A DNA stretch of 64,000 nt from positions 744,532-808,531 of the forward strand of contig OZ006985.1 in NCBI GenBank assembly GCA_963931165.1, written 5' to 3'. The position numbers and the translations under genes are program-made. Positions 39,997 through 59,410 of this stretch are shown here, piece by piece. The notes below the pieces were generated by a model, which was not told the origin of the DNA, did no database searches, and saw only the letters and a program-made list of their open reading frames with translations. Position 1 is the first letter of the stretch, and the number at the start of each line of letters is the position of its first letter. This stretch comes from an uncultured Christensenellaceae bacterium (GTDB lineage Bacteria; Bacillota; Clostridia; Christensenellales; UBA3700).

Positions 39997-40081
39997 ACAT
40001 ACACGCGGCGCGGTCTATTTTTTGGGCTCGGTTCTATGCCGTAACAAACATAAGCGCGCGATGACAGCGCGCTTCCTCAGC

Positions 40082-40206
40082 GTTGCCAAAGGCAACATTT
40101 CACGCTTGCGCGATGCGCAAGCATTTCACGCGGCGGTCAAACGGCCGCCGTATTTCATGTTTGCGCGACAGCGCAGACATTTCACCGCCGGGGCAGCTTG
40201 CCCGGC
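40082..40206. repeat. Array of five short hairpins separated by ATTTCAC
   Basis: ATTTCA(C/T) at 40097, 40123, 40152 and 40179, each flanked by different GC-rich stem-loops. Confidence 0.75.
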
Positions 40207-40346
40207 TTGCGCGGTCTGTTTTTGGGCTTGGGTTGAGGCATAATAATAAGGAAAACGAATAGTCTATACCAAAAAGAACCGATTTGATAAACGCAATCGC
40301 GGAGTATCCGGCGAGAGATTTTCGAAGATATTGCGCCAACGTATAT

Positions 40347-40470
40347 AAAAAGAAAAGCGGTCAGTAACGACCGCTTGCGACCGATCACGGCCGCTCCGCC
40401 CTAGAATATATAGGGCAGGCGTATTGAGCACACAGCAAACCATATCAACGGTCAGGCGGCTCACTTGCAA
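40347..40470 (-). ncRNA. Candidate orphan small RNA (about 120 nt)
   Basis: Minus-strand TTGACT(40504-40499)-17bp-TATAAT(40481-40476); terminator AAGCGGTC...GACCGCTT plus U-run. Confidence 0.5.
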
Positions 40471-40828
40471 TGGTGATTATAATGCAATGTTAGAGATAAG
40501 TCAAGCAAAACAACGAAAATTTTACAACTGGACGACTTTGGCAATTGTATTCTTTTCTTCTTGGAAAGTCAAGCCTTACATAACATGGTACAGTTGAACA
40601 AGATTCGCAAAACGGATCTATTCGGGAAAATTGGTGGAGACAACTCGCCTTACAGCGATTGCCGATAGGGGACGACGAGGCACATATCCGCATTGAACGA
40701 CTGCTTAAATAGTAACGCTGTTCAAGCGAAACAACGAAGTTTGAATGCCGCGCCGCAAAGCGAGCGCGGAACAGAAAAAGCCTGTCGCGGATTGCAAAGC
40801 AATACGCATAACAGGGGGACGATTCCCC

Positions 40829-40858
40829 AAAAAAATACCGAGTCAAAAGACCCGGTAT
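40829..40858 (-). terminator. Displaced original terminator of tRNA-Glu
   Basis: Minus strand TCACCA followed by ATACCGGGTC-TTTT-GACTCGGTAT-TTTTTT; the G-U pair fits minus-strand transcription. Confidence 0.7.
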
Positions 40859-41207
40859 GGTGAACTGTCTTTCGAGATGTCCGAACACGTATTTGGCGGC
40901 GATTCGGCAATGGATTTATCTCCAATATCATCTGTTTTCGGCGGCATCCGATTGAGATAGTTGTAGTAAATCTCAAAACGGTCGATGGCGTACACAAGTA
41001 CGATATCCCACGGCACGGCTTTTTCACAATCGGCAAGCATCTGCTGAAATGCAGGGCGATGGTCGTTCGTGCCTGTCATGGCTCTGTCGATATAGGTATC
41101 TAAAATCGTCAAACCGTTCGCCTCCGCATACTGATTGCAGATTCGGAGCTGTCCTTCGATGGACTGCTCGTTTTGTTTTTCACTGCTGTAACGTGCGTAG
41201 ATAACTG
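40843..41207 (-). pseudogene. Large serine recombinase remnant: split by insertion and internally deleted
   Basis: IYARYSS...QSIEGQ...DRAMTG...AIDRF joined directly to C-terminal EIYYNY...SSP; first codons displaced to 53183-53197. Confidence 0.85.
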
Positions 41208-41530
41208 TCACATATTTTTATGGACACTTTTTATCAAGTATTGCTACACCGCCAAATTCAATTTTTCGTTTCAAAAGGGTTTTGCCGGGTAGAATCACAA
41301 AAATAGACAGTCTAAAAAATACAATAAGCAGTCTGGATTTAACGAAAAACGGCCTCTGAAGTTCAGAGGTCGTTTCGATTTATTATTCATAACATAAGGA
41401 TGTCTAGAATTTGACTATTGTAAGAAACCAGCTTATCGTGAATCCCAAGTTCCAGGACATAATTCAAAAGTACTGAAATTTAATTTAATTAAAAAACTTA
41501 CACACTTCTCCTGAAACTGCCATATACATA

Positions 41531-44401
41531 TTACATAATATATTCAAACGACACTAAATCGCTGCCCATGTCTCCTTGCTTTAAGAGTTTACACACCATC
41601 CTTGAATATTTAATTGTTACAGGCAATTTTGAATAAATCACATCAGAGCTATTGAAATCCATTTTTGTTAAATACATAAGATCGTCAATTGCTTCATTTG
41701 CAGATATATTTCCGTAATATTTTTTAATTTTTAACGGTTTACCCATACCACGGGGGTTATTTCTATATGTTTGACCTTGGCAAATTTCTGAATTAACAAT
41801 TGAGCCATCAGACCAAACATAAATAGTATCCTTTGCCGCTTTAATCGCGGTTCCTCTTTTTACAGGATAACCCAAACAACCATATTTACCAAATTTGTAA
41901 CTATTAAAGAAAGAAAAGTCAGATATTTGAATTAAATCAAAATCATCTATACCCTCAAAAGCTTTTTTGAAACCAGCAATTTCTTCTTTTCGAAATGGAT
42001 TGGCTCTGTGAATAACTATTCGCTTTAGCTCATTTATTTTTGAGGTTTTATAATATGTTTGTCTAATTTTAATTCCCAGTTGATATGCTTCTTCTTCGGA
42101 AAGATATTGATTTTTTCTATGTTTATCGGATACTTGCGAGATGATTAATTGCATACCGCGTCCAGCACCATCAAACATTTGGCTGCACCCTACATGGATT
42201 CCATCAGAATTAATTCCAAAACTTATACCCAAAAACAGTGTATCTTTTGAATATTTCTCGGGATACCAAGGCATTCCTATAGTTTTTGTATATATTCCTA
42301 TCGCTAAATTAAATAATTTTTTATTTATATTGTCAGCCGAATTAAGTGTAGTTTCCTCGATAAATTGCGTTTTATACTTATTCATACAATGCAGTTTGAT
42401 ATAATCATGTAAATCTTTCTCGCCAGCCACTCGAAATCTTTGCAAATTATTGCCAATGAAAATCAATGCAATATCAATTTGTTTGTCATTATACATTTTT
42501 TGAATTCCACGTAAACACATTTCTGCAAATTTCGTGAAATCAACTTTGTTGTTTGCGGCGAGTTTATTGGCATAAAAAATAGGTATAGCATCATAAATCA
42601 GGTCTATTTCTTTTTTAAATATTGAATTGAAACCCTTATATTTCGGAATTAAATTTGTGCCCGATATATTCGTTCCGTTTAGAAATTGATTCAAAAAATA
42701 TTCTAACTTTGATTTGTCTTCTTCCGCACAAAAAACACCAACACGAATTTTATTTGTAGAAAACAATGTTTTACGCGGTCCGCTTTCCGTTATAATTTTA
42801 ATTTGATTTACGCTTTTGAAATTTTCTCCTACCATAATTGGTTCGGCAGTACAATTATATTTATCAAACGTAACGCAGTCAGTGCGATACCCAAATGGCT
42901 TATTATTAAATATAATTTCAGTAATATCATAATTAAATGAAAATATTCCCCTAAAGAATTTTTGTATAAGTTCATTCAGCTTATGGTAATTCTTTTGTGC
43001 ATGCAAGTAAGATTTTATGTTATTAATCTTATGTTTAATTGAATCCGACAGAACTTTCTCAGTAGAAAAGTAGTTAACATTTACAAATAAACAAATCTCT
43101 CCACTAAAGAAATCGACACGAACATTAAGCCCCTCTTTAATGGCTTCTCGAGAATTTATATAAATATTATCTTTGTACACTTCAAAACCGTCTTTTAGCG
43201 CCTTTATTTTTATAAATTCTTTTATCAGTTTACATTTCTTTTTTAGCGATATGGACTGTTCACACAAATTAACTATTTTAACTGCCTCAACGGTACAATT
43301 TAACTTTTTGAAGAGCGATTCTTTGTCCCCGACCGCATATAAATATTCGCCATGTTGCAAAATAAACGTTTCATCTTTAATGTCGTTTATCTCCTTTAAT
43401 GTTGAAGAGTCCAATGAATATTTTATCTTATAAACATTGGGATAATTTTGCAACGGATAGCAATTAAACATTAATTTTTCCGGTTGATTTTGTACCATTA
43501 GCGCAAAATTTTCATACTGAATATTTTTTTTAATGTTTTCTATTATGTCATTTTTCTTTCCATAGCAATTATACAGCTGTAAAAACAGATCGTCAAATCC
43601 GTTAATTATATAATAGCCCGATTGAGAATTAAAGCCCATCAATTCATTAATCGCATCATTTTTCGTTTGAGTATTGTCCACGATACACCAAACTAATTCC
43701 GTTTGTTTATGACTTGACAAATATTTTTTTAAACACTCCATTACGGATTGATCTTGTCCGGAATATCCAATTACCACAATTTTAGATGTATTAAGAGATT
43801 GAATTGCAGAAAAAATTTTATGAGATAGATTTTTTAATTCAGTTTCGGTGTTTTTAATCTGATCATAAATATAATCTCCATGCAATTTAATTAAATTTAA
43901 TTTTGTAGTTAAATTTGGACAAAGCGAGTCAGAACTTACAGAAAAGTCATACCCATCATTTATTTTATACAAGGCTTTTTCACATAACTTATCAAAATTT
44001 GTGGTCAATACACAATGTATTTGATGTTCAATTAAGTAATTAGCAAAACAAAGATACCCGTAAGATGGCTTTATTGCTTCAAATTTTTCTTTTATAAATA
44101 GACATCTTTCGTTTACAGAAGGAAAACACTTTTCAAAATAATAAGAATATGGATTAACGCCTTGCGGTAGTTGCTCCGTTTTTAAGAACTCAACAAAATT
44201 ATCGTCATTTATGAATAGATTATCGTCATAATGAATATTGTTTTGCGCACAATATATGCGCTTTCTAAATTCCAAAATCAACTTACTTGCGGGCATGCAT
44301 CCAGATAAAACAGAACAGCCTGCCCCAAGTAAAAATGTTACTTCTGAACCATTCAGTAAATTCAAACTGTTAATCAATTGATCTTGTGTGTTATATTTCA
44401 T
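41531..44401 (-). CDS. Single-chain SIR2-APAZ-short Argonaute fusion (SPARSA-like)
   Basis: SIR2 motifs LGAGCS, TTNFD, KLHGD, GYSG; MID HDYIK...TQFI; PIWI with degenerate tetrad (GISF, IHRA) and TKMDFN...KLPVTIKYS. Confidence 0.9.
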   Translation of the reverse strand: MKYNTQDQLINSLNLLNGSEVTFLLGAGCSVLSGCMPASKLILEFRKRIYCAQNNIHYDDNLFINDDNFVEFLKTEQLPQGVNPYSYYFEKCFPSVNERCLFIKEKFEAIKPSYGYLCFANYLIEHQIHCVLTTNFDKLCEKALYKINDGYDFSVSSDSLCPNLTTKLNLIKLHGDYIYDQIKNTETELKNLSHKIFSAIQSLNTSKIVVIGYSGQDQSVMECLKKYLSSHKQTELVWCIVDNTQTKNDAINELMGFNSQSGYYIINGFDDLFLQLYNCYGKKNDIIENIKKNIQYENFALMVQNQPEKLMFNCYPLQNYPNVYKIKYSLDSSTLKEINDIKDETFILQHGEYLYAVGDKESLFKKLNCTVEAVKIVNLCEQSISLKKKCKLIKEFIKIKALKDGFEVYKDNIYINSREAIKEGLNVRVDFFSGEICLFVNVNYFSTEKVLSDSIKHKINNIKSYLHAQKNYHKLNELIQKFFRGIFSFNYDITEIIFNNKPFGYRTDCVTFDKYNCTAEPIMVGENFKSVNQIKIITESGPRKTLFSTNKIRVGVFCAEEDKSKLEYFLNQFLNGTNISGTNLIPKYKGFNSIFKKEIDLIYDAIPIFYANKLAANNKVDFTKFAEMCLRGIQKMYNDKQIDIALIFIGNNLQRFRVAGEKDLHDYIKLHCMNKYKTQFIEETTLNSADNINKKLFNLAIGIYTKTIGMPWYPEKYSKDTLFLGISFGINSDGIHVGCSQMFDGAGRGMQLIISQVSDKHRKNQYLSEEEAYQLGIKIRQTYYKTSKINELKRIVIHRANPFRKEEIAGFKKAFEGIDDFDLIQISDFSFFNSYKFGKYGCLGYPVKRGTAIKAAKDTIYVWSDGSIVNSEICQGQTYRNNPRGMGKPLKIKKYYGNISANEAIDDLMYLTKMDFNSSDVIYSKLPVTIKYSRMVCKLLKQGDMGSDLVSFEYIM

Positions 44402-44419
44402 TATTAATTTCTCCGCAGA

Positions 44420-46384
44420 TTAAATTCTATCTATAATCTTTTGTTGGTACCACGCATTAGGCGCAATGTTGGATTGATACGCTTGATTAAATATTTGGTA
44501 CAACTGAGCATATGTTATTTGTTTTTGCATAATTGTTTTCAATTCCTTTGTTTGGCAAGGAATTATTTTCATTCCATCAATATGTTTTGTTCCATCTATG
44601 GAATAATAGGGTATATTTTTCCTGCCCCTAAAATCTGCAATAACATTAACGTGCAGATAGGTTGTCGCAAACAAACAATAAGCATGTTCATCGGCGTGGG
44701 ATAAGAGGTAGTCTCCTAAATGTCTCGAAACGGGCTCCATCTCCATACGGCGTTGATTTGTACTGCTTGCAAGTGTTGCTTCCAGAAGAAGGGTATGGGC
44801 AGGATAGTCTTCCGTCGCTTCGTATTTATAGGTAATGTCTTCATGTCCGCCCGCGGCATGGGTTACAGGCAGCAGATCCGCATCAAGCGATAAATTCATG
44901 TAGTCAAGGATTTTTCCTTGTCTTCCGGAAATCTTATACCATGCGATAGCCAGCACGTACTCAAAGATAGTAGGGACATCTGCATTGTTCGTAACCAGGG
45001 TTTGAATGTCACTATCACGCCTATCTTCAAAAGCGGACAAGAGAAAGATAATGTTTTCGTCCGTAAATCTGCGGTCAATCATCGCATTGAATCGTTCATA
45101 GCGTTCTCTATCGACAAAAGCTTGTACGTCATACAAGTTACGAACTTGAACGCCATATATTTCTTCAACCTTAGCAAATATCTGATTTTCGGTTATCTGC
45201 GTCCCGACAATCGATTCCAAAGAGCTGTTTCCCATCAGATTGTCATCTGAAGTATATGCTAAAGCTGCAAGGCTTTCTTCGGCAATTTTGAAGAAACAAT
45301 TCGGGATTATATCAAACTTGACTTTACCGTCTTGGAACAATACGGTATCTGTCGTTTTGAAGTACCGTCTGTTAAGGTCAAAATAATCCGATAGAGTGCT
45401 CTTTGCCTTAAATAAATGCAGAAGCTTAAAAAATTCGGTTTTGAACTCCGTTTCGTCTGCACAGTTAAAAATATGAGCGTGTCTATTTATAGTGGCAAAG
45501 CCGTCTCTATTGACTTTGCTTGTCAAAGTTGCATTAAACAGATACTGTTTCCAAAGAATTGAACTCTTGCCGCTGACTGATTTTACCGCTTTGAATAAAT
45601 TTATTGCAGCCGTATCAGAACGAGTGAGGATGACATCCTGTAATGTCTTATACAACTTAAAATACGGCTTGTCATAATTGCGGCTCTTGCGATTCATACC
45701 GACTTCTGTAATGACATCTTCAGTAACATTGCTCGCAAGCAGTATATCAAGCGCTTCCTTATAATTCGGCATATCCATAAGGATATTGATTATCGTTTCA
45801 TCGATAGTGCCATTGCCGTTACGAATCTTTTCAATGCTGTCAAATATATCTCGGGTTTTTGCCTCGTTGATTGCGAGCGGCAAAAGGTATGTAACCTCAT
45901 CAAACGACAACTCACCCAAACGATTGAGGGCCATGATCAGGATAACATAAGGCCGTACATAGCCGCTATTGATAGGCGAATGTACTTTAAGAAGCTGGTT
46001 CAGATACAGAAAACTATCCGCCGGAATTTGAAGCAGGTTATTAGTATTGAAGTTACCGGTTAATGCTATCTGCAATAATGCGGTGCCAGCATCTGTGAGC
46101 CTGCGCTCATCGTTGATAAGGCCGAGATCTACAAGTCCGGACGTTTTTTCTCTTGCGTCTTTTGCTTTTCGTGGAGCTTCGCCTTCAATGAAGCCGTTTT
46201 CCTTAAGAAAATCGTAATACGCAATCTGCACCGGTTCATTCTCAGACCACCGCTGATTTGAAAAAGCAGGATTAGCCCAAAAATCGCTCAAAAGTTCAAG
46301 CTGCCTTTCAATCTTTCTATTAAACTCAACCATTCGGAAGCTTGTAGTTCCAAGCGACCAACAATAGCTTTTATATGCAGGCAC
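44420..46384 (-). CDS. AlwI-family type IIS restriction endonuclease
   Basis: N-terminal WSLGTTSFR, EYVLAIAW, LLEATL and EMEPVSRHL motifs recalled for this family; adjacent dual methylase. Confidence 0.85.
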   Translation of the reverse strand: MPAYKSYCWSLGTTSFRMVEFNRKIERQLELLSDFWANPAFSNQRWSENEPVQIAYYDFLKENGFIEGEAPRKAKDAREKTSGLVDLGLINDERRLTDAGTALLQIALTGNFNTNNLLQIPADSFLYLNQLLKVHSPINSGYVRPYVILIMALNRLGELSFDEVTYLLPLAINEAKTRDIFDSIEKIRNGNGTIDETIINILMDMPNYKEALDILLASNVTEDVITEVGMNRKSRNYDKPYFKLYKTLQDVILTRSDTAAINLFKAVKSVSGKSSILWKQYLFNATLTSKVNRDGFATINRHAHIFNCADETEFKTEFFKLLHLFKAKSTLSDYFDLNRRYFKTTDTVLFQDGKVKFDIIPNCFFKIAEESLAALAYTSDDNLMGNSSLESIVGTQITENQIFAKVEEIYGVQVRNLYDVQAFVDRERYERFNAMIDRRFTDENIIFLLSAFEDRRDSDIQTLVTNNADVPTIFEYVLAIAWYKISGRQGKILDYMNLSLDADLLPVTHAAGGHEDITYKYEATEDYPAHTLLLEATLASSTNQRRMEMEPVSRHLGDYLLSHADEHAYCLFATTYLHVNVIADFRGRKNIPYYSIDGTKHIDGMKIIPCQTKELKTIMQKQITYAQLYQIFNQAYQSNIAPNAWYQQKIIDRI

Positions 46385-46403
46385 TTCTATTTCCTCCGTA
46401 TCA

Positions 46404-48545
46404 TCAATAGTTCACGATCAGCACTTCCTCTGCCTTGGAAGTTTTATCTTTTGTCTGATAATTTGAATTCGCGTAGTTATAATCTAGGTAAATCACGCGA
46501 TAACGGTCAATATTCCTATCAATCCAATCGAGAAGTATCTTATTCTCTTTCCCCTTGGAATGAAGTACATTGGACAGTGCAAAGCGTATTCCTCGTTCAT
46601 TCAGATTATCAAGATAGGTAAGCAGTTCTTTTTCAAGCATTTCGTTCCAGCCGTCCTGCTCGTTATACGTAGCGCAAGTGATCAGATAGGGCGGATCGGC
46701 ATAGACAAAGGTATTCTCATTCCAATCGTCAGTCAGAAGTTCTCTGAAATCATGGCTTGCAAAACTATAATCGCCGCTCTTTAATCGGTCGATAAAGGTC
46801 GATAACTTCTCACGCATCTTTTTGTTGAAGTCGCGCTTTCCGACAGGGAGATTAAATTCACCCTTGCGATTGAAACGGATTTGGTTATTAAAGGCGTAGA
46901 CAATCAAGACATACAGCGTAACATAATAGTTATACTCTAAATTGGTATGATGATTAAAATCATCTCTTAATTTAAGATAGCGAGAACTATTATATGAGGC
47001 AAGTCCTTCCGCGCTATTGCAACCGTAAAAATCATACCCGTACTTTTCCGTGTTGGAAAGGCCGTACTTTTCTATAATCGCGTCGATCGTTTCAAAAGTT
47101 ACTTGCTTGTCGAGATTTTTAAATGTCCCAAACATATACCGAAGAAGCTCGTTATTGTCATTAAAAATAACGCGATTGCAAGGAACATTGATGCCGACAT
47201 TCCCGCCGCCGCAAAATAAATCGACAAACCTATCTATATCCTGCGGGAAATGGGGCAATATCTGGGGCAGGAGCTTGTATTTTCCTCCCGTATAATTGAG
47301 AGGGGATTGAATAAGCTCTTTTTGCTTGGAATCATAGCACTCACAAAGGAATAAACGCTCTTCATTCCCTGTAATGTTTGATTTCCCGGCACTGAACGCC
47401 CTGTAGCTTTCCGAAAAGACCTTTACGCGCCCCTTTCGTGATAAAATACGCATAATATCTGCGTCACTGATTTTGGCATTGGAACGGTCATTACCTTTTG
47501 TCGCCATATTATTGTACGACAACAGAATATATTTTGCCTTAATATGCGAAACAAGATCTTCAAACGCCTGCGCTGCGCTTGAAGTACAATAATCACTCTT
47601 GAGTTTTGAACGATCCATCTTTAAGGCAACACCCGATACCTTTGGCTTTTCCCACCTTGCAACGTTTTCCAGAAGATGGTATGAATCGCAGTATTGTCTT
47701 GAATTATACGGCGGATCGATATACACCAGATCAGCCTCTATACGTTTAACCAATTCGTTAGCATCTTCATTGTAGCATTGATTGTTTTCGTTATTATCAT
47801 TGCTTGCCAAGGGGACAGCTAATTCAATATGACGGCAGAATTCAGCATTGCGTATATAGGCGTCGTAATGGCCGCAGGTGTTTGCAATTTTATCCATTGC
47901 GTAGAGTAGCGAAGTGATCAGAATCGCACGTTCTCTGGCATTAATCTGATTACTTTTGTATTTGCTTTCTATATCCTCTCTGATAAAACCAATCTTACGG
48001 CAATCCGCAGCAGAAAAAAACGTATCGGAAAAATTTTCCGACATATAATTCTCTTCGTTTGGTTGCACGGTGTTATAGAAGCAAACCAAGTCAATTATCT
48101 TTTCCTTATCATATTTTTGCGCACCGAACCATGCAACGTGACAAATGTAATTAAAGTAGAGCAAGTCATTTGTAATCAGTTTTTTGTCTGAAAAAGCAGA
48201 CGCAACAGAACCCGTCCCCGCAAAAATATCGGCGACAGTATTGATTGCACTGCATTCTCTATTTACCGTAGACTTAATAAAATCCAGCAGTTTGTACTTG
48301 TTCCCGAGATAACGCCTATTATTGATTTGGGTGGTCTTGTAGGAGGGTTCCGAAGCTACAGCATTATCTTCCGGTGCGTCTTTTAGTAATATTTTGAGTT
48401 GCGCAATCGAGTCCTCATCCCAGACATAGCGCCCAGTAGAAGTAGTTGGTAATTCTATCAAATGATGTTTTAGCAGATAATAGAAAGTAGATCTGCTGAC
48501 ATTCAACTCTTTCAAAATCTCATTAGAAGATAATGCAGACGGCAT
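46404..48545 (-). CDS. Two-domain N6-adenine DNA methyltransferase with N-terminal HTH
   Basis: Two sets of motif I (DIFAGTG, DLFCGGG) and DPPY; N-terminal HTH-like ILKELNVSRSTFYYLL; AAGGAG SD before ATG 48545. Confidence 0.92.
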   Translation of the reverse strand: MPSALSSNEILKELNVSRSTFYYLLKHHLIELPTTSTGRYVWDEDSIAQLKILLKDAPEDNAVASEPSYKTTQINNRRYLGNKYKLLDFIKSTVNRECSAINTVADIFAGTGSVASAFSDKKLITNDLLYFNYICHVAWFGAQKYDKEKIIDLVCFYNTVQPNEENYMSENFSDTFFSAADCRKIGFIREDIESKYKSNQINARERAILITSLLYAMDKIANTCGHYDAYIRNAEFCRHIELAVPLASNDNNENNQCYNEDANELVKRIEADLVYIDPPYNSRQYCDSYHLLENVARWEKPKVSGVALKMDRSKLKSDYCTSSAAQAFEDLVSHIKAKYILLSYNNMATKGNDRSNAKISDADIMRILSRKGRVKVFSESYRAFSAGKSNITGNEERLFLCECYDSKQKELIQSPLNYTGGKYKLLPQILPHFPQDIDRFVDLFCGGGNVGINVPCNRVIFNDNNELLRYMFGTFKNLDKQVTFETIDAIIEKYGLSNTEKYGYDFYGCNSAEGLASYNSSRYLKLRDDFNHHTNLEYNYYVTLYVLIVYAFNNQIRFNRKGEFNLPVGKRDFNKKMREKLSTFIDRLKSGDYSFASHDFRELLTDDWNENTFVYADPPYLITCATYNEQDGWNEMLEKELLTYLDNLNERGIRFALSNVLHSKGKENKILLDWIDRNIDRYRVIYLDYNYANSNYQTKDKTSKAEEVLIVNY

Positions 48546-48587
48546 AGAACTTCTCCTTATGCAACTTACTCGCATTGCTTTTTAGAC

Positions 48588-48616
48588 ATTATACCATATA
48601 TCTTGTGTTTTTTCAA
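48588..48616 (-). promoter_or_regulatory. Promoter of the MTase-REase-SIR2/Ago operon
   Basis: TTGAAA-17bp-TGGTATAAT on the minus strand. Confidence 0.75.
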
Positions 48617-49218
48617 GAGAATATAGCCTATTAAAGATAAAAATGGATGCTAATCATTCATCGCATCTTAAACAATAGTGGTAGATCCAAAATAACCATG
48701 AAAACATAATTTGGCACCATGACGTGTGCTTGGCATAGACAAGTGCGCCGCGCTGACGCGCGCCGCAGCCAAGCACACGCCGCGAAACGGCAACAAGAAC
48801 AACGCGGAAAACCAAACCGAAAGGCGCGGCGGAGCGGAGCCGTCCCCGCTAAACCGCTTGGGGATCGGCTGCCGCTTTTCCGCCGTGCGATCCTTTCTCT
48901 TCATTGGTTTTGCCGTTCCGTTTACCTCTTTAATTTTGCCTCTTTCGGCAGGTTTAGGTTAGCATAGTCCTCACGCAAGTCAACGGTCGCAAAATCGTCG
49001 CTTAAAACACCCATTATAGACTTTGAGAGTCGAGTAAGGGAAAGTTCCTTGCTCGGATCTTTTGTCGTTTATAAGCCGTTCTGCGCCCTCAACGCAACGA
49101 TTTTTCTTTGTCCCGTTGACTTCCGCAAGCCGACAGAGAATTTGCTCTCTTTTTATCGTCCCATGCTGCCCCGCCTGTTGCCCGAAAAAGGCAAATCCAA
49201 TTCAAGAGGTGAAAGAAA

Positions 49219-49845
49219 ATGGAACAAAAGAAAGTAACAAGAGATTTCAAAGTCCTTGCGGAAAAAATATCTCCGGACAATGTAGCGGTAATGGCGGAAC
49301 TTATTGCAATGAAAGAGACCAAAATACTCATAAGCTATCTGGGGCACCATGCGGAGAAGGCGCATAAAAACCTTTGCCGGGACATTTTCGGCAAACACGA
49401 GTCCGGATATATCTTTTCGGACAGTTACGACTTCGTCCAAAGCGTGGCGTTATTCTTATGTGACCACTTCGGAGAGTATTTGGACGACGTCCTGTATATC
49501 TCCAAAAGAGGCAAACCGAGAACGATAAAGACGGAGTGTTATCTTATCGTCACCAAAATGGTATCAAGGGATTACAGAATTTTCCGTAAATGCCAAAGCC
49601 TTGAAATTACAAGAGAAGAACCGAAACCCGAATATGGACATCAGGCAGACGAAGAACAGGACTATTCACGCGCAGATGAGATCGCGGCTTCCCTTAACCT
49701 TACGAAAAACATGAGCCTTGCGCTCGATTACCGCATGTCCGGTTTGAGCTATCCCGAAATAGCGAAACAGCTTTCCAGAGCGGTAAGCACGGTATACGAA
49801 TACTTCGAGAAAATGCGCGCAAGGTATTCCGCCATATACGGATAG
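49219..49845 (+). CDS. Sigma-70 region 4/LuxR-like HTH protein
   Basis: C-terminal GLSYPEIAKQLSRAVSTVYEY HTH; GAGG SD. Confidence 0.7.
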   Translation: MEQKKVTRDFKVLAEKISPDNVAVMAELIAMKETKILISYLGHHAEKAHKNLCRDIFGKHESGYIFSDSYDFVQSVALFLCDHFGEYLDDVLYISKRGKPRTIKTECYLIVTKMVSRDYRIFRKCQSLEITREEPKPEYGHQADEEQDYSRADEIAASLNLTKNMSLALDYRMSGLSYPEIAKQLSRAVSTVYEYFEKMRARYSAIYG

Positions 49846-49867
49846 ATTTTCTATTTCATACTTCATT

Positions 49868-49902
49868 AAAGGCAGTTGCTTGCTATAAAGCGGCTGCCTT
49901 TT
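49868..49902 (+). terminator. Intrinsic terminator
   Basis: AAAGGCAGTTGCTT...AAGCGGCTGCCTTTT. Confidence 0.65.
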
Positions 49903-50183
49903 CTCATGTTCCTCGAAGCATTGCTTTTCCAAAAGTTTAGTAAATGGGGCAAAAAACCTGCCCCATTTATTTGTAGGATAAAGAAAAACTTTTTCAAATA
50001 GGAAAAAAGCCTTCCTATTTGGCGGATACCATGTGGAAAAAGCAAGCGAAAGACTTTTTCAAAGTGGAAAGAAACCTTGCCGGTTTGACTTGTAGAATTA
50101 TTCCAAGGAACTTCGTAAAGGTGCAAAAACTTTGCGAGTTTAAGGTTTAAGCTATGCAAAAAATACAAGGAGGAACAAAAGCA

Positions 50184-51077
50184 ATGCCTTACAAAGCAGC
50201 AAAGATCTCGTTTGACGGAAGTCATTACATCGCCACCCCTAAGGAAAATTTCCCGCAGGGACATAAGCGACGACGGGCAGCCATTCCGTCAACACCAAAA
50301 GAGGTCGAACAAAAAGCGCAATTCGAAGCCGCCTACAAGGAAAGTCAAAAACTGCCGCGCAAAGAACGCAAAGCATGTATGCAAAAAGCTATGGAAGAGG
50401 CGATCCCAGACAAGGAGCAGCGGAAAGAATACGTGGAGCGGAACAATGAACGCAAAAAGACGAATGCAATCCGCAGAAAAGTCCGTTTGTCCAAGAAAGT
50501 GAATTTGCAGAGAGAATGGAGCTATTTTTGCACGTTCACCTTTTCGGACGAAAAACACACGGAAGAAAGCTTCCGTAAGTCGCTGCGAAACACTTTGAAG
50601 CACCTCGTAAACCGCAAAGGCTGGAAACATATCGGCGTATGGGAGCGCGGCGGAGAAACCGGAAGATTGCATTTTCACGGTATCTTCTATATTCCGCCGG
50701 ACAGGATGGTCGGAGAGATCGTGGAAACAAAGGATTACAACACAAAAGACCATCGAATGCAGACGGCGCACCAGAACACCTATTTCCTTGAACGATACGG
50801 ACGCAACGACTTCCAGCCGCTCGGCTCGCAGGAAGAAGTACAACACTCTTTGGGGTATCTGATGAAGTACATAGAAAAGTCCGGCGAGCGTCTGATCTAT
50901 GGCGGCAAACTGCCGACCTACTTCGAATCGGACGTAGCAGACGAGGATATTCTCGCTCCATACGGGATAGACGACAGAAAGGCGATACTTGCGGACAATT
51001 TTACCTGCATGGTGGACGGAGAAGTCATAGGCAAAGTAAGTCCGGAAGTCATAGCAAAAATGCCGAAGGCAAATTAA
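50184..51077 (+). CDS. HUH-family rolling-circle replication initiator (Rep)
   Basis: Motif 1 FCTFTF, motif 2 LHFHG, motif 3 YLMKY; AGGAGG SD. Confidence 0.85.
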   Translation: MPYKAAKISFDGSHYIATPKENFPQGHKRRRAAIPSTPKEVEQKAQFEAAYKESQKLPRKERKACMQKAMEEAIPDKEQRKEYVERNNERKKTNAIRRKVRLSKKVNLQREWSYFCTFTFSDEKHTEESFRKSLRNTLKHLVNRKGWKHIGVWERGGETGRLHFHGIFYIPPDRMVGEIVETKDYNTKDHRMQTAHQNTYFLERYGRNDFQPLGSQEEVQHSLGYLMKYIEKSGERLIYGGKLPTYFESDVADEDILAPYGIDDRKAILADNFTCMVDGEVIGKVSPEVIAKMPKAN

Positions 51078-51257
51078 ATTCATTTGTCTTTCGCCGAGAG
51101 AGCGTAAACGAAAACGCCCTTTTCGTCAAGGGTAAAGTGCATTGCCTTGGCAACCCTTGACGGAAAGTAACAGACAGGACAGCAAGGGGACGAATCTTGC
51201 GTTTCCGTTTGTTTCGTCTCCGCCGAAAGGCAAAGTAAACAAACAGGAGGATAAAAA

Positions 51258-51452
51258 ATGAACAACATTGAGGTCAAAACGATTTACGGCAGGATAGAAG
51301 ATTTTGAAAATAATTACTTCTTCTCTCCGTCTATCAGCAAAAGAAAAACTGTGGGCAGGCAGACCTATTACGTCCGCAGATATTTCAACGGCGGCAAAGA
51401 CTTTGAACAGGCTATGAAGTCCATTGCCGTGCAGCGCACAATGAAAAAGTGA
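51258..51452 (+). CDS. TnpW-like small protein
   Basis: AGGAGG SD; VGRQTYYVRRYF resembles TnpW; position just before the recombinase. Confidence 0.5.
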   Translation: MNNIEVKTIYGRIEDFENNYFFSPSISKRKTVGRQTYYVRRYFNGGKDFEQAMKSIAVQRTMKK

Positions 51453-51462
51453 GGTAAACGAT

Positions 51463-53094
51463 ATGAAACAGAAACACTACATCGCGGGATTGTATTACAG
51501 ACTTTCCCAAGAGGACGAACGTCAAGGCGAATCGGTATCCATAGACAACCAAAGAACAATCTTACGCAAGTATGCCGAAGAGCGCGGCTTTACCATCCAC
51601 GACGAGTACATTGACGACGGCGTATCGGGTACGACATTTCAGCGCCCTGAAGTGCAAAGATTGTTGGACGACGCAAAGACGGGCGTCATCAATACCATCA
51701 TCGTCAAAGACCTTTCAAGATTCGGACGAAACTACATTGAAGTCGGGCAATATGTGGATTATGTATTCCCCGCGTTCGGTATTCGCTTTATTGCCATACA
51801 AGACAACGTGGACACGGAAAATCGTGACAGCGGCGCAATGGAGATGATGCCTATCATGAACGTCTTTAACGAGTGGCACGCGGCTAATACGAGCAAGAAA
51901 ATTCGCGCGGTAAAAAGAACGCACGCTCTCGAAGGAAAATTCAGCGGTTCAAGAACACCGTACGGTTATCTGAAAGGAACGGACGAAAAAAGGACTTTCG
52001 TGATAGATGAAGAAACTGCGCCCGTCGTGAAAAGGATTTTTGAGATGTATGCGTCCGGTATCAGCCCTCAAAGGATAGCAGAAATTTTCAATGAGGAAGA
52101 TATACCAAGTGCCGGCAGGATCGCATTTTTGAGGAGCGGCAGGAAATATAACAACAACGAGCATCCCTACTGGGAGCAGGCGACAATTAGACCGATATTG
52201 AAAAACATTGCTTATCTCGGACATCTGGCGCAGCAGAAATTTACCACAATTTCGTATAAAAATCAGAAAGCAATACAAAAAGACCCGAGCGACTGGGTAA
52301 TCGTTTATAATACGCATCCGCCTATTATCTCACAGGAATTGTGGGACAGAGTACAAGAGCGCATGAAATCACAGGCAAAAGGCAGAAAGATGCACACGGG
52401 AATTACGCATCCGCTTTCGGGATTTTTATACTGCGCCGATTGCGGCGGAAAATTGAAAATGGGCTATGCATGGGACAAAAGAAAGAATGATTACAGGTAT
52501 AATTTTGACTGCGGCAGGCTGAAGCGTTATGGAAAATCATATTGCTTCTCGCACTATATACAGGCGCATATTTTGGAAAAGATCGTGCTTGACGATATAC
52601 GGGATATGGCAAAAATGATTGTACTCGACGAGGATTCTATCCGCGAAGAGTTTGTGCGTCATAATGCTGAATTAAGAGATCAATCCGTGAAGTCTGTAAA
52701 AAAACAGTTACAGGTAAAACGCAGACGTACGGAAGAATTATCCCGCCTTATGCAGACAGCTTATGAAGACAGAGTGAACGGCAAGATGCCCGAGGATATC
52801 TGTATCGGTTTTATCCAAAAATATTCCGAAGAACGGAAACGACTGGAAGCAGAGATCGCGGAACTGGAAACAAAACTGAACGAAGCGGAAACCGTGCGGC
52901 AAAGCGCGGAAGATTTTATACAAAACGTCAAGAAATATCTCGACGCGCCTGAACTCACACGGGAAATGTGCTACGAACTGATTGAGCGAATAATCGTAGG
53001 CGGCCTGCCGAAAATAACGGGCAAAGAACGGACGATAGAGATTGTATATAAAGTCGATATCTCTTCCGTCCTGCGACATAAATTCCGCCAATAA
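51463..53094 (+). CDS. Large serine recombinase (TnpX/TndX-like)
   Basis: LYYRLSQED, DDGVSGT, KDLSRFGRN; recombinase domain; Zn ribbon CADC...C; C-terminal coiled coil. Confidence 0.95.
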   Translation: MKQKHYIAGLYYRLSQEDERQGESVSIDNQRTILRKYAEERGFTIHDEYIDDGVSGTTFQRPEVQRLLDDAKTGVINTIIVKDLSRFGRNYIEVGQYVDYVFPAFGIRFIAIQDNVDTENRDSGAMEMMPIMNVFNEWHAANTSKKIRAVKRTHALEGKFSGSRTPYGYLKGTDEKRTFVIDEETAPVVKRIFEMYASGISPQRIAEIFNEEDIPSAGRIAFLRSGRKYNNNEHPYWEQATIRPILKNIAYLGHLAQQKFTTISYKNQKAIQKDPSDWVIVYNTHPPIISQELWDRVQERMKSQAKGRKMHTGITHPLSGFLYCADCGGKLKMGYAWDKRKNDYRYNFDCGRLKRYGKSYCFSHYIQAHILEKIVLDDIRDMAKMIVLDEDSIREEFVRHNAELRDQSVKSVKKQLQVKRRRTEELSRLMQTAYEDRVNGKMPEDICIGFIQKYSEERKRLEAEIAELETKLNEAETVRQSAEDFIQNVKKYLDAPELTREMCYELIERIIVGGLPKITGKERTIEIVYKVDISSVLRHKFRQ

Positions 53095-53098
53095 CAAC

Positions 53099-53136
53099 AA
53101 AGCGTATGGGTTTCATTCAAACTCATACGCTTTTTC
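53099..53136 (+). terminator. Terminator after recombinase
   Basis: AAAGCGTATGGGTTT...AAACTCATACGCTTTTT. Confidence 0.8.
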
Positions 53137-53182
53137 TATGCCGTTTGCACTTTCTTCAATAGTGTCCATAAAATGAAATAGC

Positions 53183-53210
53183 AACTGCACCTTTCATTGT
53201 CGTTTACCTC
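53183..53210 (-). pseudogene. Displaced SD and first five codons (MKGAV) of the outer recombinase
   Basis: Minus strand GAGGT-aaacgaca-ATG AAA GGT GCA GTT; continues in frame at 41202 after excision. Confidence 0.85.
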
Positions 53211-53702
53211 TGTGTTCGGATTTGTAGTTCACATACTATCTTTTTTTGATTGGGAATGTTAGCAAGCCAGCCCATAAGGTTTCCCAACTGACCGTGCATT
53301 TTGCATAACTCTTCCCAAAATAACCAAAAGCGTATGCAAACTTTTGTGTCGATTTTTTCTTTCGACAACCCGAAACAATCGGGAAAAGACTACGCCGTCA
53401 AGGGCGTCAGGGGCAGCGCCCAAAAAATTATTGCATACTGATACAGAAAAAGCCGACCCGCGCAAGCAGATCGGCTTATAAGTTTTCAGCGACAATTTTT
53501 CCCCTTGACGGCAACGGTTTTTTCCGATACCATCCGCAAATCGAAAGACTTTGCCAAAGTACCCGACATTTTGGGAAGATTATGGGTGCGGTTATCCTTT
53601 TTTTAAGTTCTTTCGGTACAGAGTATGCCCATTGTATAGGGCGGCTATCTAACAATCTTTTGTAAAAAGTTGTACCCTCAAAGAAAAGCGCGGAGGTACA
53701 CA

Positions 53703-53858
53703 ATGCAGGAAATAGACGTCAAGAATGATTTTGATGCAAAAGTTCTTATCAACGGGGTTCCGGACTATCGGCTTATCATTGCCGATAAAGAATCAGGTTT
53801 TTTAGAGGCATTGGAATTGCAGATAAGCGAGCACTATAAGGAGAATACACAATCTTAA
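53703..53858 (+). CDS. Small hypothetical protein (51 aa)
   Basis: CGGAGG SD before ATG 53703. Confidence 0.45.
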   Translation: MQEIDVKNDFDAKVLINGVPDYRLIIADKESGFLEALELQISEHYKENTQS

Positions 53859-53896
53859 AAGTGTATAAAAACATTATATTTTGGTTTAATCTGAGC

Positions 53897-53947
53897 TTGA
53901 CATAATTTTTCTTTTCTTCTATAATATATGCAAGTGAACACTTGCAT
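53897..53947 (+). promoter_or_regulatory. Promoter and palindromic TetR operator
   Basis: TTGACA-17bp-TATAAT, followed by ATGCAAGTG-AA-CACTTGCAT (53928-53947) over the start site. Confidence 0.8.
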
Positions 53948-53962
53948 TTTATGGAGACAGAT

Positions 53963-54538
53963 ATGGATAAGACGAGCGAAAAGATAATCGATGCCACGAT
54001 GGAGTTGATTTTGGAATGCGGCTATGCGGCGGCAACCACCAAAGATATTGCCGTGCGTGCAGGAGTGAATGAATGTACCATCTTCCGAAAGTTCGGAGAA
54101 AAGAAGGAAATTGTTGTTGAAGGGATGAAGTTGCCACGCTGGCATCCTAATATCACAAAAGATACTTTTGCAGACATTTCCGGAGATTTGCGTGCCGACC
54201 TCACGATGTTTATGGAGAACTATATGCGCGAAGTTACTCCCGAATTTGTAAAACTCTCCGTCGGCTTGCGTTCGCCGCAGATATACGAATATACCGCCCC
54301 AATAATAATGAATATTCCGCAGGTATTCCTTTCAGAGGTAAAAAAATACCTGCAAACTATGCAGAGGCTTGGCAAGGTAAGACAGATTGATATTGACCAA
54401 ACGGCTGAAATGTTCCTTTCGGCTGCATTCGGATACGTCTTCCTCTCCGCTTCATTTGAAAAGGGGCTTTTAAATTCCGACAGAGCTGCGTACATTGAGA
54501 GTACCGTCAACACAGTTATCGGGGGGATTACACAATGA
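53963..54538 (+). CDS. TetR/AcrR family regulator
   Basis: GYAAATTKDIAVRAGVNECTIFRKFGEK HTH; start ATG 53963 after GGAG. Confidence 0.92.
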   Translation: MDKTSEKIIDATMELILECGYAAATTKDIAVRAGVNECTIFRKFGEKKEIVVEGMKLPRWHPNITKDTFADISGDLRADLTMFMENYMREVTPEFVKLSVGLRSPQIYEYTAPIIMNIPQVFLSEVKKYLQTMQRLGKVRQIDIDQTAEMFLSAAFGYVFLSASFEKGLLNSDRAAYIESTVNTVIGGITQ

Positions 54539-56933: not shown

Positions 56934-57001
56934 AGTGGAATTAAAGCAAACTAGCAAAGCTAATCCACTGGAGATACTGCTATTGTAGTGTAGGCTAAAA
57001 T

Positions 57002-58978
57002 TTATTCAATATCTTCAATGGATATGCTATTTTTTTGACAAATCTTTGGTTTGCGTTTGTCAAATAACTTTTTAACAAACCATCTATCAAAATCATTTTT
57101 ATACGAAATAATTTCAAACACAATTGTTAAAAGAGAGCTTAATCCCGTTATGATTGTTGATATAATCGCGAATTTGGAAATTTTGTCTAAGCACACCAAC
57201 ACTATTTGCGAAATGGTTCCCGCTAACAAAAGTGCGGCAATCAATGATAGGATGATTCCGAAGCCAATTTTAATCTTTAATTTATATATCTTGAACTGTT
57301 TTTGTGCTTGTTGTAGCCGTAACGAATAGTTCTCATTTTGCAATTTTTCGATTTCTTCGTCTTTTCTTTTTGTCAAAGACGCAATTTCTGATTTGTAAAG
57401 GTTTTCTCTTTCTTGCGTTTGTCTATCAAAAGATTTCTGCGCGTCAAAAATATGATTAGCTTTAATATGCTCCAATACTTCATATACCGTGTTTTGAGAC
57501 AATTCTTCAATATTATTTTGTGTGCTTTGAACCAAAAAGTCATTTACCATTGTATGGTTCCTAATTGCTATATAGTCATTTTCCGTTATCCTTGACGCTT
57601 CTTTTTCTTGTTCCACCAATTCTACAAATTTGCTTAGCATAGCTCTAGTCGGCTTATATGCGCTATAACAGAACGACAACACTTTATTTGTTGCAACCTG
57701 TTGCGCCTTGTGTGAGTTTTCACCGCTTATTATCATTCCTATAAACGCATCGCTTATTACCGGTGATATGGTTTCTTTATAATGTTCGTTATTATATTTT
57801 CTTATTGCATTTACAAAGCCAAAATTACTGCTTATATAAAAACAAGGAGCATCTGACAATTTTATTATGTTGTTATTCTTTCGCAAACTATAGATATGAA
57901 TTGCACTATCAGTATCTATATTTATAGCTGTTTCCGGTAAATATCGTTTATCTTTAGAAGAGGAACAATATTCCTGTATTATACCATTACGGATATCATC
58001 ATAGCTTTCCACAAAAAGTTTGTCATCCCAATCAACATCAGCATTAAACAGTTCTATCCCCAATTTAGTCAAGTGACTATTCAATAATTCTATTTCTTCA
58101 GCAACATCTTCGGCACGCATATTTTGACTTCTAAAATAATTGCAAACGTCTGAAGAGTGAGCCATATCGTATTGAACGCTTTCAACATATTTTTCGGCTG
58201 TACGCAAAACTTTTAAGACCTCATCATAGTTTCGCTTAAAAATATAAATTTTGCAGCTCTTCTCAATCAAACTTTGGATTAAAAACTTATATTCTTGTTC
58301 ATAGAAATCGCCATAATATCCAAGCAATCTAAAAATGATCGGGGTGTCAATATATAAAGTTTTATTTATAAAAGCACTGCTTTTTAGCCCTTCATTAAAC
58401 ATATATGACTTAATCAGAGTACTTTCGCATAGAGAAACAATAAAATTAAATAAGGAATCCTTTTGTTCTTTCAGTTGTTGGATATATCCTGATAAAAAAT
58501 ACCTATAAGTATCACTCTCGTCATATAAAGTTCCACGCCCAGTATATACTTTGGTGTCAAAGTTGTTATCATCAATAAAATCAGTAATAATTTTATCCGC
58601 TGTATTATAGTTAATTTCATCGGGAGCATTACAAAAAGCTACAAACCCATTGATAAGTTTATTATATTTCTCATCAAAAGAATTTGCCTCTGAGTCCAAG
58701 TCAACATTTGGCATTGTATCTTTATGAAAAATCCATTGTTTGTGTTTTATATCCACATAACCTTTCTGTTTCATATTGTTTAAGATCGGACGCAAAATAA
58801 ACATTTCCAATCTATATCCATATTTATGCTTGAATTGCTCGGACAATTCTTCGATAGTGCAAGACTCTATTTTTTCAGAACGTATTAAATTAATTACAAA
58901 CGGCATGAATGTACTAACAGTATCTTGCGGTAACCATTTTGATTTAAGAATGTAATAATTTTTGACTGTTTTATTCAT
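57002..58978 (-). CDS. AT-rich hypothetical protein: wHTH-like, PIN-like, coiled-coil, 2 TM (candidate defence gene)
   Basis: LYIDTPII, YDEV, IDTDS and ISSN positions resemble a PIN active site; two C-terminal hydrophobic helices; own promoter at 59018-59046. Confidence 0.7.
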   Translation of the reverse strand: MNKTVKNYYILKSKWLPQDTVSTFMPFVINLIRSEKIESCTIEELSEQFKHKYGYRLEMFILRPILNNMKQKGYVDIKHKQWIFHKDTMPNVDLDSEANSFDEKYNKLINGFVAFCNAPDEINYNTADKIITDFIDDNNFDTKVYTGRGTLYDESDTYRYFLSGYIQQLKEQKDSLFNFIVSLCESTLIKSYMFNEGLKSSAFINKTLYIDTPIIFRLLGYYGDFYEQEYKFLIQSLIEKSCKIYIFKRNYDEVLKVLRTAEKYVESVQYDMAHSSDVCNYFRSQNMRAEDVAEEIELLNSHLTKLGIELFNADVDWDDKLFVESYDDIRNGIIQEYCSSSKDKRYLPETAINIDTDSAIHIYSLRKNNNIIKLSDAPCFYISSNFGFVNAIRKYNNEHYKETISPVISDAFIGMIISGENSHKAQQVATNKVLSFCYSAYKPTRAMLSKFVELVEQEKEASRITENDYIAIRNHTMVNDFLVQSTQNNIEELSQNTVYEVLEHIKANHIFDAQKSFDRQTQERENLYKSEIASLTKRKDEEIEKLQNENYSLRLQQAQKQFKIYKLKIKIGFGIILSLIAALLLAGTISQIVLVCLDKISKFAIISTIITGLSSLLTIVFEIISYKNDFDRWFVKKLFDKRKPKICQKNSISIEDIE

Positions 58979-59262
58979 TAGTATTCACCAAATTTTTCTT
59001 AATAGATATTTAAACATATTATACTGCATTTTGGTAAGAAAATCAATAGTCTGCAATACATATAATCGTTATTATGAAAAGATTGTCTTTGGAGTTAAAG
59101 ATTACCGACGATTTATTATTTAGAATGATAAACGAAAATAGTGTGTTCGGTAGCGGTGGTTGACATCAGAAAGGTTGTTTGTTTTTTAATAAATAATCAC
59201 CATAGACTGATTGAGGGTGCGATTAGAACAAATTGATTCGCTTAGCTTTTATATGGTAAGCC

Positions 59263-59335: not shown

Positions 59336-59410
59336 TGGTGACTCCAAGGGGAATCGAACCCCTGTTACCACCGTGAAAGGGTGGTGTCTTAACCGCTTGA
59401 CCATGGAGCC
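59336..59410 (-). tRNA. tRNA-Glu (TTC)
   Basis: Reverse complement GGCTCCATGGTCAAGCGGTTAAGACACCACCCTTTCACGGTGGTAACAGGGGTTCGATTCCCCTTGGAGTCACCA; promoter TTGACA-17-TATATT at 59457-59429. Confidence 0.97.

Follow-up and report, generated by a model that had tools for sequence, protein, structure and literature searches.

A fused SIR2-Argonaute gene behind a type IIS-type restriction-modification pair: a probable two-layer defense cassette with a swappable tail slot

Introduction

Why should the gene of a short Argonaute stand as the last cistron of a restriction-modification operon? The question is raised by a locus of an uncultured Christensenellaceae bacterium, whose 1.8-Mb genome comes as one contig (assembly GCA_963931165.1, contig OZ006985.1). 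Within the 64,000-nucleotide stretch analyzed here, positions 744,532 to 808,531 of the forward strand (the window), genes for a DNA methyltransferase, an AlwI-family restriction endonuclease and a fused SIR2-APAZ-short prokaryotic Argonaute (pAgo), hereafter SIR2-Ago, follow one another closely on the minus strand. An earlier, sequence-only reading of the window had proposed a layered or coupled system, in which restriction cuts first and SIR2-Ago kills the cell if restriction fails, or else is activated by single-stranded DNA (ssDNA) from restriction breaks.

In 2009 restriction and abortive-infection genes were shown to be statistically over-represented around pAgo genes (PMC2743648), and a 2018 list of proteins from same-strand pAgo operons included HsdS, type III endonucleases and methyltransferases (PMC6299218). 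Those surveys did not resolve a type IIS trio, an exchangeable slot at the operon's tail or a recombination breakpoint, which are documented here at base-pair level, and our literature searches found no paper on this type IIS trio, on such a tail slot or on a functional link between restriction and short Argonautes. We argue that the locus is probably a co-transcribed, two-layer defense cassette, with layers that act independently, a swappable tail slot and a place among the cargo of a small mobile element. It is a well-resolved test bed, not a new mechanism.

Results

Three long open reading frames (ORFs) fill the minus strand between window positions 48616 and 41347, and no other sizeable ORF is found there. 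The methyltransferase gene (48575/48545..46404) yields 713 aa from the ATG at 48545, which is preceded by an AAGGAG ribosome-binding site and is also the start from which the methyltransferases of relatives are called. The endonuclease gene (46384..44420, 654 aa) opens with GTG, and the SIR2-Ago gene (44401..41531) encodes 956 aa. Just upstream lies a strong sigma-70-type promoter with an extended -10 box (48588..48616, minus strand; TTGAAA-17-TGgTATAAT), which matches the consensus at 11/12 positions and is the top-scoring match within 40500-49500. About 160 bp past the Ago stop codon, an intrinsic-terminator-like hairpin with a T-run (41347..41375, minus strand) has a 13-pair stem when read on the plus strand and, on the minus strand, a 7-pair GC-rich core followed by CCGTTTTTCG. 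The sequence-only reading had placed one promoter, three co-oriented genes of these families and a terminator-like hairpin just so, and its gaps of 19 and 18 bp are exact (46385-46403 and 44402-44419), each holding a GGAG-type ribosome-binding site. Its remark that no promoter or terminator interrupts the operon is roughly true, in that hairpins within coding sequence at 47584..47558 and 48043..48023 and one internal promoter-like site, taken up below, are weak and none is convincing.

By family match and motif content, the first two genes appear to form a restriction-modification pair. The methyltransferase matches the PF02086 D12-class domain twice (E 1.2e-65) and the PADLOC model MTase_II (6e-273), its C-terminal half is similar to T4 Dam (1.5e-40), and the pairs FAGTG/DPPY and FCGGG/DPPY supply two FxGxG and two DPPY motifs; these features identify a putative two-domain D12-class N6-adenine DNA methyltransferase. 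Tandem D12 domains are expected where an asymmetric site is modified. Both domains are complete and the gene immediately precedes that of the endonuclease in the operon, as is appropriate to a cognate enzyme acting on both strands of such a site. The endonuclease aligns over the full PF09491 RE_AlwI profile (positions 1-441 of 441, E 5e-66), which assigns it by family to the AlwI, type IIS-type enzymes. Its catalytic region, aligning with residues 390-530 of N.BspD6I (2ewf), is intact and retains the conserved acidic blocks HEDITY, LLEATL and MEMEPVSRH, although the enzyme may be nicking-only. The pair thus resembles the AlwI, N.BstNBI and N.BspD6I systems with their FokI-like tandem D12 methyltransferases, from which it differs in an extra N-terminal helix-turn-helix (HTH) on the methyltransferase and in the last 70-90 residues of the endonuclease, which vary among relatives and are exchanged along with the downstream cargo.

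The third protein matches the PADLOC model Aga_SIR2-PNTD1-PNTD2 nearly end to end, APAZ region included (residues 1-944 against 1-997 of 1010, E 3.2e-153), as well as PADLOC pAgo models (1e-126). Its MID-PIWI portion spans about residues 518-943 (42850..41573, minus strand), as placed by profile and Protein Data Bank (PDB) matches. At what we take to be the GxD and RDG positions of the PIWI DEDX tetrad of active Argonautes, G725-I-S727 and R799-A800-N801 are found; on this tentative reading of motifs, neither position would be acidic. The N-terminal SIR2 domain (about residues 15-276, 44359..43574, minus strand; PF13289, 4.5e-12) aligns with residues 14-294 of GsSir2 and holds the catalytic Asn-His pair and the NAD-binding residues: TTNFD (N135, F136, D137), H174 and GYSG (Y213) are invariant across 42 homologues and correspond to GsSir2 N142, F143, D144, H186 and Y226, which are required for NADase activity (PMC10781750). 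In the MID domain, H665, K669 and Q679, likewise invariant in the 42-sequence alignment, match GsAgo H166, K170 and Q181, the pocket for the guide 5'-phosphate (PMC10781750). The SIR2, MID, DPPY and endonuclease acidic motifs being present, all three genes look functional.

The nearest described system is the short Argonaute GsSir2-Ago of Geobacter sulfurreducens (SPARSA; PDB 8in8, 8jkz), with which the window protein shares the SIR2 NADase, APAZ and MID-PIWI parts, the Asn-His pair and the H-K-Q pocket. The two are distant in sequence, the window protein matching GsAgo at 3e-33 and GsSir2 at 6e-17, and the window gene, with no room for a separate promoter, comes third among the cistrons of a type IIS restriction operon in a low-GC mobile element. 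Fusion into one protein has been described before, PgSir2-Ago of Paraburkholderia graminis being a single chain (10.1101/2021.12.14.472599).

Is the third gene there by chance? Whether the gene order recurs across genomes was a check that the sequence-only reading had itself proposed, and it does recur. A scan of species-representative genomes gave only six Ago relatives, and the useful context came from metagenome contigs. One of these (L001) is identical to the window and has the same order; methyltransferase, endonuclease and SIR2-Ago follow one another in at least four further metagenome lineages (L003, L091, L090 in part, and L092-95) with gaps of 10-19 bp. Compared with those of the window, their methyltransferases are 73-79% identical, their endonucleases 55-70% and their Agos 67-74%, the proteins having diverged by 20-45% overall. 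Recurrence across such diverged lineages indicates that SIR2-Ago is not a chance neighbor, and, as the lineages share ancestry, it represents conserved synteny from one origin rather than repeated independent assembly. By pairwise identity, the outlier is L003 among the methyltransferases, L091 among the endonucleases and L092 among the Agos, a discordance that speaks for recombination within the cassette family, four taxa being too few for a formal test.

A mismatch between the second and third genes points to what has happened at the operon's tail. Among non-identical Agos, none comes closer to that of the window than 74% identity, whereas endonuclease relatives at 77-93% identity number more than 100 cluster representatives, because each close endonuclease relative carries different tail cargo. 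The closest (L102, 93%) is followed, 1 bp past its stop codon, by a pAgo_II (PADLOC pAgo, 4.6e-173) with an Aga_Helical-REase; the next (L103, 89%) by GajA and GajB of Gabija after a 9-bp gap; and a third group (L104-113, 82%) by a 58-aa ORF, an LmuB-like SMC ATPase (Lamassu-like) and an HNH protein. Further out, endonucleases of 52-53% identity precede Hachiman of two different subtypes (L121/L122 and L127), one of 52% an Stk2-like kinase (L126), one of 46-47% AbiU (L123), and one of 46% a 325-aa protein without family assignment, followed by an 857-aa one whose REase_II-like hits are weak (L129); L124, L130 and L132 (46-52%) carry no cargo. The cargo lies 1-21 bp from the endonuclease gene or overlaps it, the exception being the 192 bp of L121/L122. 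The endonuclease tree puts the SIR2-Ago-linked L003, L091 and L092 at its base and the window in a crown group with L102, L103 and L104, in which the cargo is mixed. From these comparisons, we read the restriction pair as a platform with a swappable slot at the operon's 3' end, and L102 against the window as a natural exchange of one Argonaute for another on near-identical restriction platforms.

The L102 Argonaute system (L102:2543-5526, ERZ28614478 scaffold_8543) consists of a 655-aa pAgo assigned by PADLOC (PDLC02395), with no Pfam hit, and a 342-aa Argonaute-associated REase/DpnII-MboI-domain protein; a reverse transcriptase gene lies further on.

The exchange has left a visible junction. 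In codon-aligned DNA, the window and L102 are 98-100% identical from 46384 to about 44690 and then only 56-72% identical to the stop codon, placing a breakpoint at 44630..44690 (minus strand), with a diverged stretch that comprises the last ~210-270 bp of the endonuclease gene. At the same point GC content, in 50-nt windows, drops from 40-52% to 26-34%, and all pairs among L102, L103 and L104 likewise lose similarity there. The tail of the window endonuclease carries motifs (VNVIADFRGRK, ITYAQLY, WYQQ) that are common to the Ago-linked L003, L091 and L090 and are not present in L102-104. Because identity, GC and tail motifs change together, we conclude that the last 70-90 endonuclease codons arrived with SIR2-Ago from an unsampled low-GC trio and that the window operon is itself a recent recombinant, with a crossover adjoining the most conserved block of the endonuclease gene. 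Such an origin accounts for a GC step inside the operon that the sequence-only reading did not mention (restriction genes 40%, Ago gene 30%, host about 57%) and shows how the slot gets refilled. Low GC as a constraint on the Ago gene itself was considered and rejected, as all three genes of L003 have 29% GC and the step in the window coincides with the identity breakpoint.

The joint travel of endonuclease tail and cargo could be read in another way. In the Escherichia coli prr locus, the abortive-infection effector PrrC, an anticodon nuclease, sits inside the EcoprrI type IC restriction-modification operon, as SIR2-Ago sits inside this one. PrrC is co-expressed with that operon, is physically restrained by the restriction enzyme and fires on its inhibition; like PARIS, it is an established precedent (PMC12707154). 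By analogy, SIR2-Ago would stay silent while the restriction enzyme works and fire when a phage anti-restriction protein disables it, and the co-travelling 70-90 codons could in principle encode a cargo-specific contact. That proposal has to contend with L092, which has a SIR2-Ago and yet the other endonuclease tail type, and with the complete guide-binding MID pocket, which suits the sensing of nucleic acids, not of proteins; a recombination anchor in the conserved catalytic block explains the co-transfer more simply. The same Ago clade also follows unrelated restriction enzymes and non-restriction genes. Comparatively, a close Ago relative, 88-90% identical to restriction-linked ones, occurs without the restriction pair, and the pair carries at least eight other kinds of cargo or none. 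Since both partners occur without each other, a PrrC-like role becomes less likely, the swapping of cargo argues against an obligate partnership, and we regard such a role as highly improbable.

Upstream of the operon, the signals suggest a regulatory circuit. The N-terminal block of the methyltransferase, an HTH of about 55 aa, has a TGRYVWD motif and is kept in relatives; the L104 methyltransferase has no such block, and a separate HTH_3 gene lies upstream instead. Just 5' of the -35 box, an inverted repeat, GATGC-N12-GCATCC (48645..48667, minus strand), is a candidate operator. Both half-sites are kept in L103, L091 and L092, the proteins being only 55-80% identical; L003 retains both with one change in the second, and L124 retains only the GCATCC half. 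The -35 and -10 boxes are kept upstream in L103, L091, L003 and L092, and the -10 box in L124, and the conserved region also includes the leader GTTGCATAAGGAG. Autoregulation by the methyltransferase is known in some type II systems. Here, the methyltransferase probably regulates the operon promoter through its HTH and the conserved repeat, although the repeat, which could be the operator for that HTH, could alternatively relate to the recognition site.

The repeat includes an SfaNI-like word (GCATC) and a FokI-like word (CATCC). As names for the recognition site, GGATC, from the Dam-like half of the methyltransferase, and GCATC/GGATG, from the promoter repeat, were considered, and neither was adopted.

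The genes divergent from the operon reveal its setting. On the plus strand lie an HTH protein with weak Pfam matches to Sigma70_r4_2/HTH (49219-49845), a rolling-circle-type Rep (50154-51077; REP_ORF2-G2P, 1.4e-11) and a large serine recombinase (51463-53094; Resolvase, Recombinase, Zn_ribbon_recom and DUF4368), so that the backbone genes, 49219..53094, are transcribed away from the restriction genes. A recombinase occupies the same divergent position beside the restriction operon in L103 and L093, accompanied in L103 by a Rep that belongs to the same family. Recombinase and Rep standing beside the window operon and related ones, the trio can be taken as cargo of a small mobile element. Elements of this kind come mostly from gut-type metagenomes. 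Recent acquisition is suggested by the absence of the Ago from all 30 related genomes examined and by a GC content of 30-40% against about 57% in the host. Near-identical DNA was not matched among plasmid or phage collections, no convincing direct repeats flank the element, and no Rfam family was detected within 40000-54000.

Other features of this region stand beside the cassette. A remnant of a second serine recombinase on the minus strand (40975-41211) has only residues 5-80, at 41205-40975, the rest of the gene not being in the window; it begins no more than 10 bp from the proposed element end, and its identity to the L113 recombinase (498 aa) is 65%. The interval from the operon promoter to the divergent HTH gene includes about 250 bp (48700-48960) that are GC-rich amid AT-rich surroundings and hold an 82-aa ORF with no family match. 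A second block of very low GC (about 31%) at 57000-59000 adjoins tRNA-Glu (59336-59410), which makes the interval of about 40.8-59.3 kb look like a composite island of several acquired cassettes.

Does SIR2-Ago keep company with restriction genes beyond this family? Fused SIR2-Ago loci were dereplicated to 56 lineages, and the co-oriented upstream neighbor could be annotated for 32 of them, the window included. A firm restriction gene lies directly upstream in 14 of the 32. It is an AlwI-family endonuclease in the window, L003 and L092, a type I HsdR in L010 and L043, a type I HsdS in L028, L042, L048 and L056, an LlaJI-family gene in L052, a type IV enzyme with a NUDIX gene in L006 and L098, a type IIG enzyme in L089 and a type III-like one in L016. 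Probable cases, namely a C5 methyltransferase followed by a small ORF (L007), a ResIII-domain protein (L061), BrxL (L067) and the GIY-YIG nuclease PD-T4-3 (L096, L097), bring the count to 19/32. The remaining upstream neighbors are helicases, Schlafen-type proteins, AbiL-like proteins, a transposase and unknowns. As a control, ten co-oriented downstream neighbors include one HsdM and one ResIII helicase (one-sided Fisher, p ~0.05 for firm cases and ~0.03 with the probable ones, from a small sample and with phylogeny ignored). SIR2-Ago also occurs without restriction genes, in L002, L005, L011, L035 and others, and in L002 an AAA_14/DUF4143 ATPase precedes a SIR2-Ago that nevertheless shares 88-90% identity with its restriction-linked counterparts in L090 and L091.

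Several of these loci have features of their own. In L096 (2810-3535) and L097 (6055-6780), the 241-aa GIY-YIG gene lies 19 bp upstream of a SIR2-Ago 60% identical to that of the window and is itself preceded by HNH nuclease genes, a recurrent nuclease-Ago pairing. In L006 (6535-9817) and L098 (1261-5015), a type IV PLD-helicase-DUF3427 enzyme, one gene in L006 and split in two in L098, and the NUDIX gene directly precede SIR2-Ago; a connection of the NUDIX gene with NAD or ADP-ribose metabolism is conceivable. In L010 (3954-9948), a type I operon has a reverse-transcriptase gene between hsdS and hsdR, and SIR2-Ago follows 25 bp past hsdR, giving three defense modules in one same-strand array.

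Discussion

We consider it probable that the window operon is a co-transcribed cassette of two independent defense layers. The restriction-modification pair would be the resident platform and the source of the operon's only promoter, and SIR2-APAZ-Argonaute a promoterless passenger in the 3' slot. Homologous recombination would swap the cargo, with the highly conserved catalytic block of the endonuclease gene as its anchor, so that the last 70-90 codons of that gene travel with the cargo. In an infected cell, restriction would cut unmethylated incoming DNA first, and SIR2-Ago would act independently, as GsSir2/Ago does, with an RNA guide pairing with invader ssDNA and the ensuing breakdown of NAD+ leading to abortive infection. 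Linkage may bring shared regulation, low expression of a toxic last gene, joint mobility and stabilization of the element by addictive restriction, and autoregulatory control by the methyltransferase would extend to whatever cargo occupies the tail slot.

Several considerations weigh against this reading. Co-transcription of the three genes is something that we infer from their spacing only, and a promoter-like site matching at 9/12 positions lies inside coding sequence at 44558..44529, 130 bp 5' of the Ago start. The trio's persistence through 30-45% protein divergence exceeds what simple island clustering requires, as does the tight defense cargo of most readable restriction-pair relatives. 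The upstream bias toward restriction genes is suggestive of a preference beyond plain hitch-hiking. Finally, other slot cargoes come from families reported to sense DNA damage or ends.

The first of these considerations raises the possibility that the operon is only apparent, the Ago having its own promoter in the 3' end of the endonuclease gene and being expressed and selected independently. The incoming low-GC segment begins ~210-270 bp 5' of the Ago start and could have carried such a promoter along, and the wide gap before the cargo in L121/L122 would be compatible with separate expression. Yet sites of the same weak grade as that at 44558..44529 number 38 where 29.5 are expected by chance, spacing in most loci is 10-21 bp or an overlap, and a signal scan found no terminator between the endonuclease and Ago genes. 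Mere adjacency therefore seems to us very unlikely.

The other considerations bear on coupling, the part of the sequence-only reading that did not fare well. Its layered, single-operon half stands by anatomy and recurrence; the idea that restriction breaks feed or trigger the Ago found no specific support, since the platform swaps its cargo, the L002 Ago stands behind an ATPase and the window operon is a recombinant. Worked out as a relay, the idea would have the endonuclease cut or nick, host helicase-nucleases process the breaks to ssDNA, and that ssDNA serve as the target that activates guide-loaded SIR2-Ago, converting heavy but failing restriction into NAD+ depletion and abortive infection; other slot cargoes would exploit the same signal. 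Several observations fit: the tight operon is retained in several diverged lineages, the same slot, on platforms that hardly differ, has taken up two Argonaute systems unrelated to each other, restriction genes of types I, IIS, IIG, III and IV and of LlaJI lie upstream in 14/32 (19/32) but downstream in 1-2/10, and GsSir2/Ago is activated by the pairing of an RNA guide with a DNA target (PMC10781750). If the slot were functionally tied to restriction cuts, alternative cargoes that sense damage or ends would also be apt occupants: Hachiman is a sensor of DNA damage (PMC12278908), Lamassu attaches to DNA ends (10.1101/2025.03.14.643221), and ends also elicit a response from OLD-family proteins, relatives of Gabija (PMC13648713).

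Against a relay stands the diversity of the slot cargo, which includes AbiU and a kinase. Homologous SIR2-Ago systems reportedly protect when cloned alone, the restriction pair occurs without cargo in three relatives, and SIR2-Ago occurs in several lineages without restriction genes; in addition, the upstream bias comes from that small sample with phylogeny ignored, and the literature searched offers no functional link between restriction and Ago. We therefore regard a relay as unlikely. A broader version, in which restriction operons are the habitual, functional upstream partners of SIR2-Ago and of further modules that sense damage or ends of DNA (Hachiman, Gabija, Lamassu), cuts or nicks in invader DNA, processed to ssDNA, are the physiological trigger of these suicide modules and the tail slot is a dedicated socket for second stages that sense breaks, strikes us as slightly more doubtful still. 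As SIR2-Ago lies behind restriction genes more often than before them, there may be a generic link between the two.

How short Argonautes are triggered in vivo is only partly understood, and the trio offers a compact three-gene construct for asking whether restriction cuts feed the trigger, with natural controls at hand in the same platform bearing Gabija or another Argonaute. If the layers are independent, the value of the locus is more modest, as a well-resolved case of modular exchange of defense cargo on small mobile elements. As a clean example from nature, it illustrates how immune layers may be assembled, with a restriction operon as a docking platform and a tail slot that recombination refills with one suicide-type module or another, two Argonaute systems of separate kinds on almost the same platform among them.

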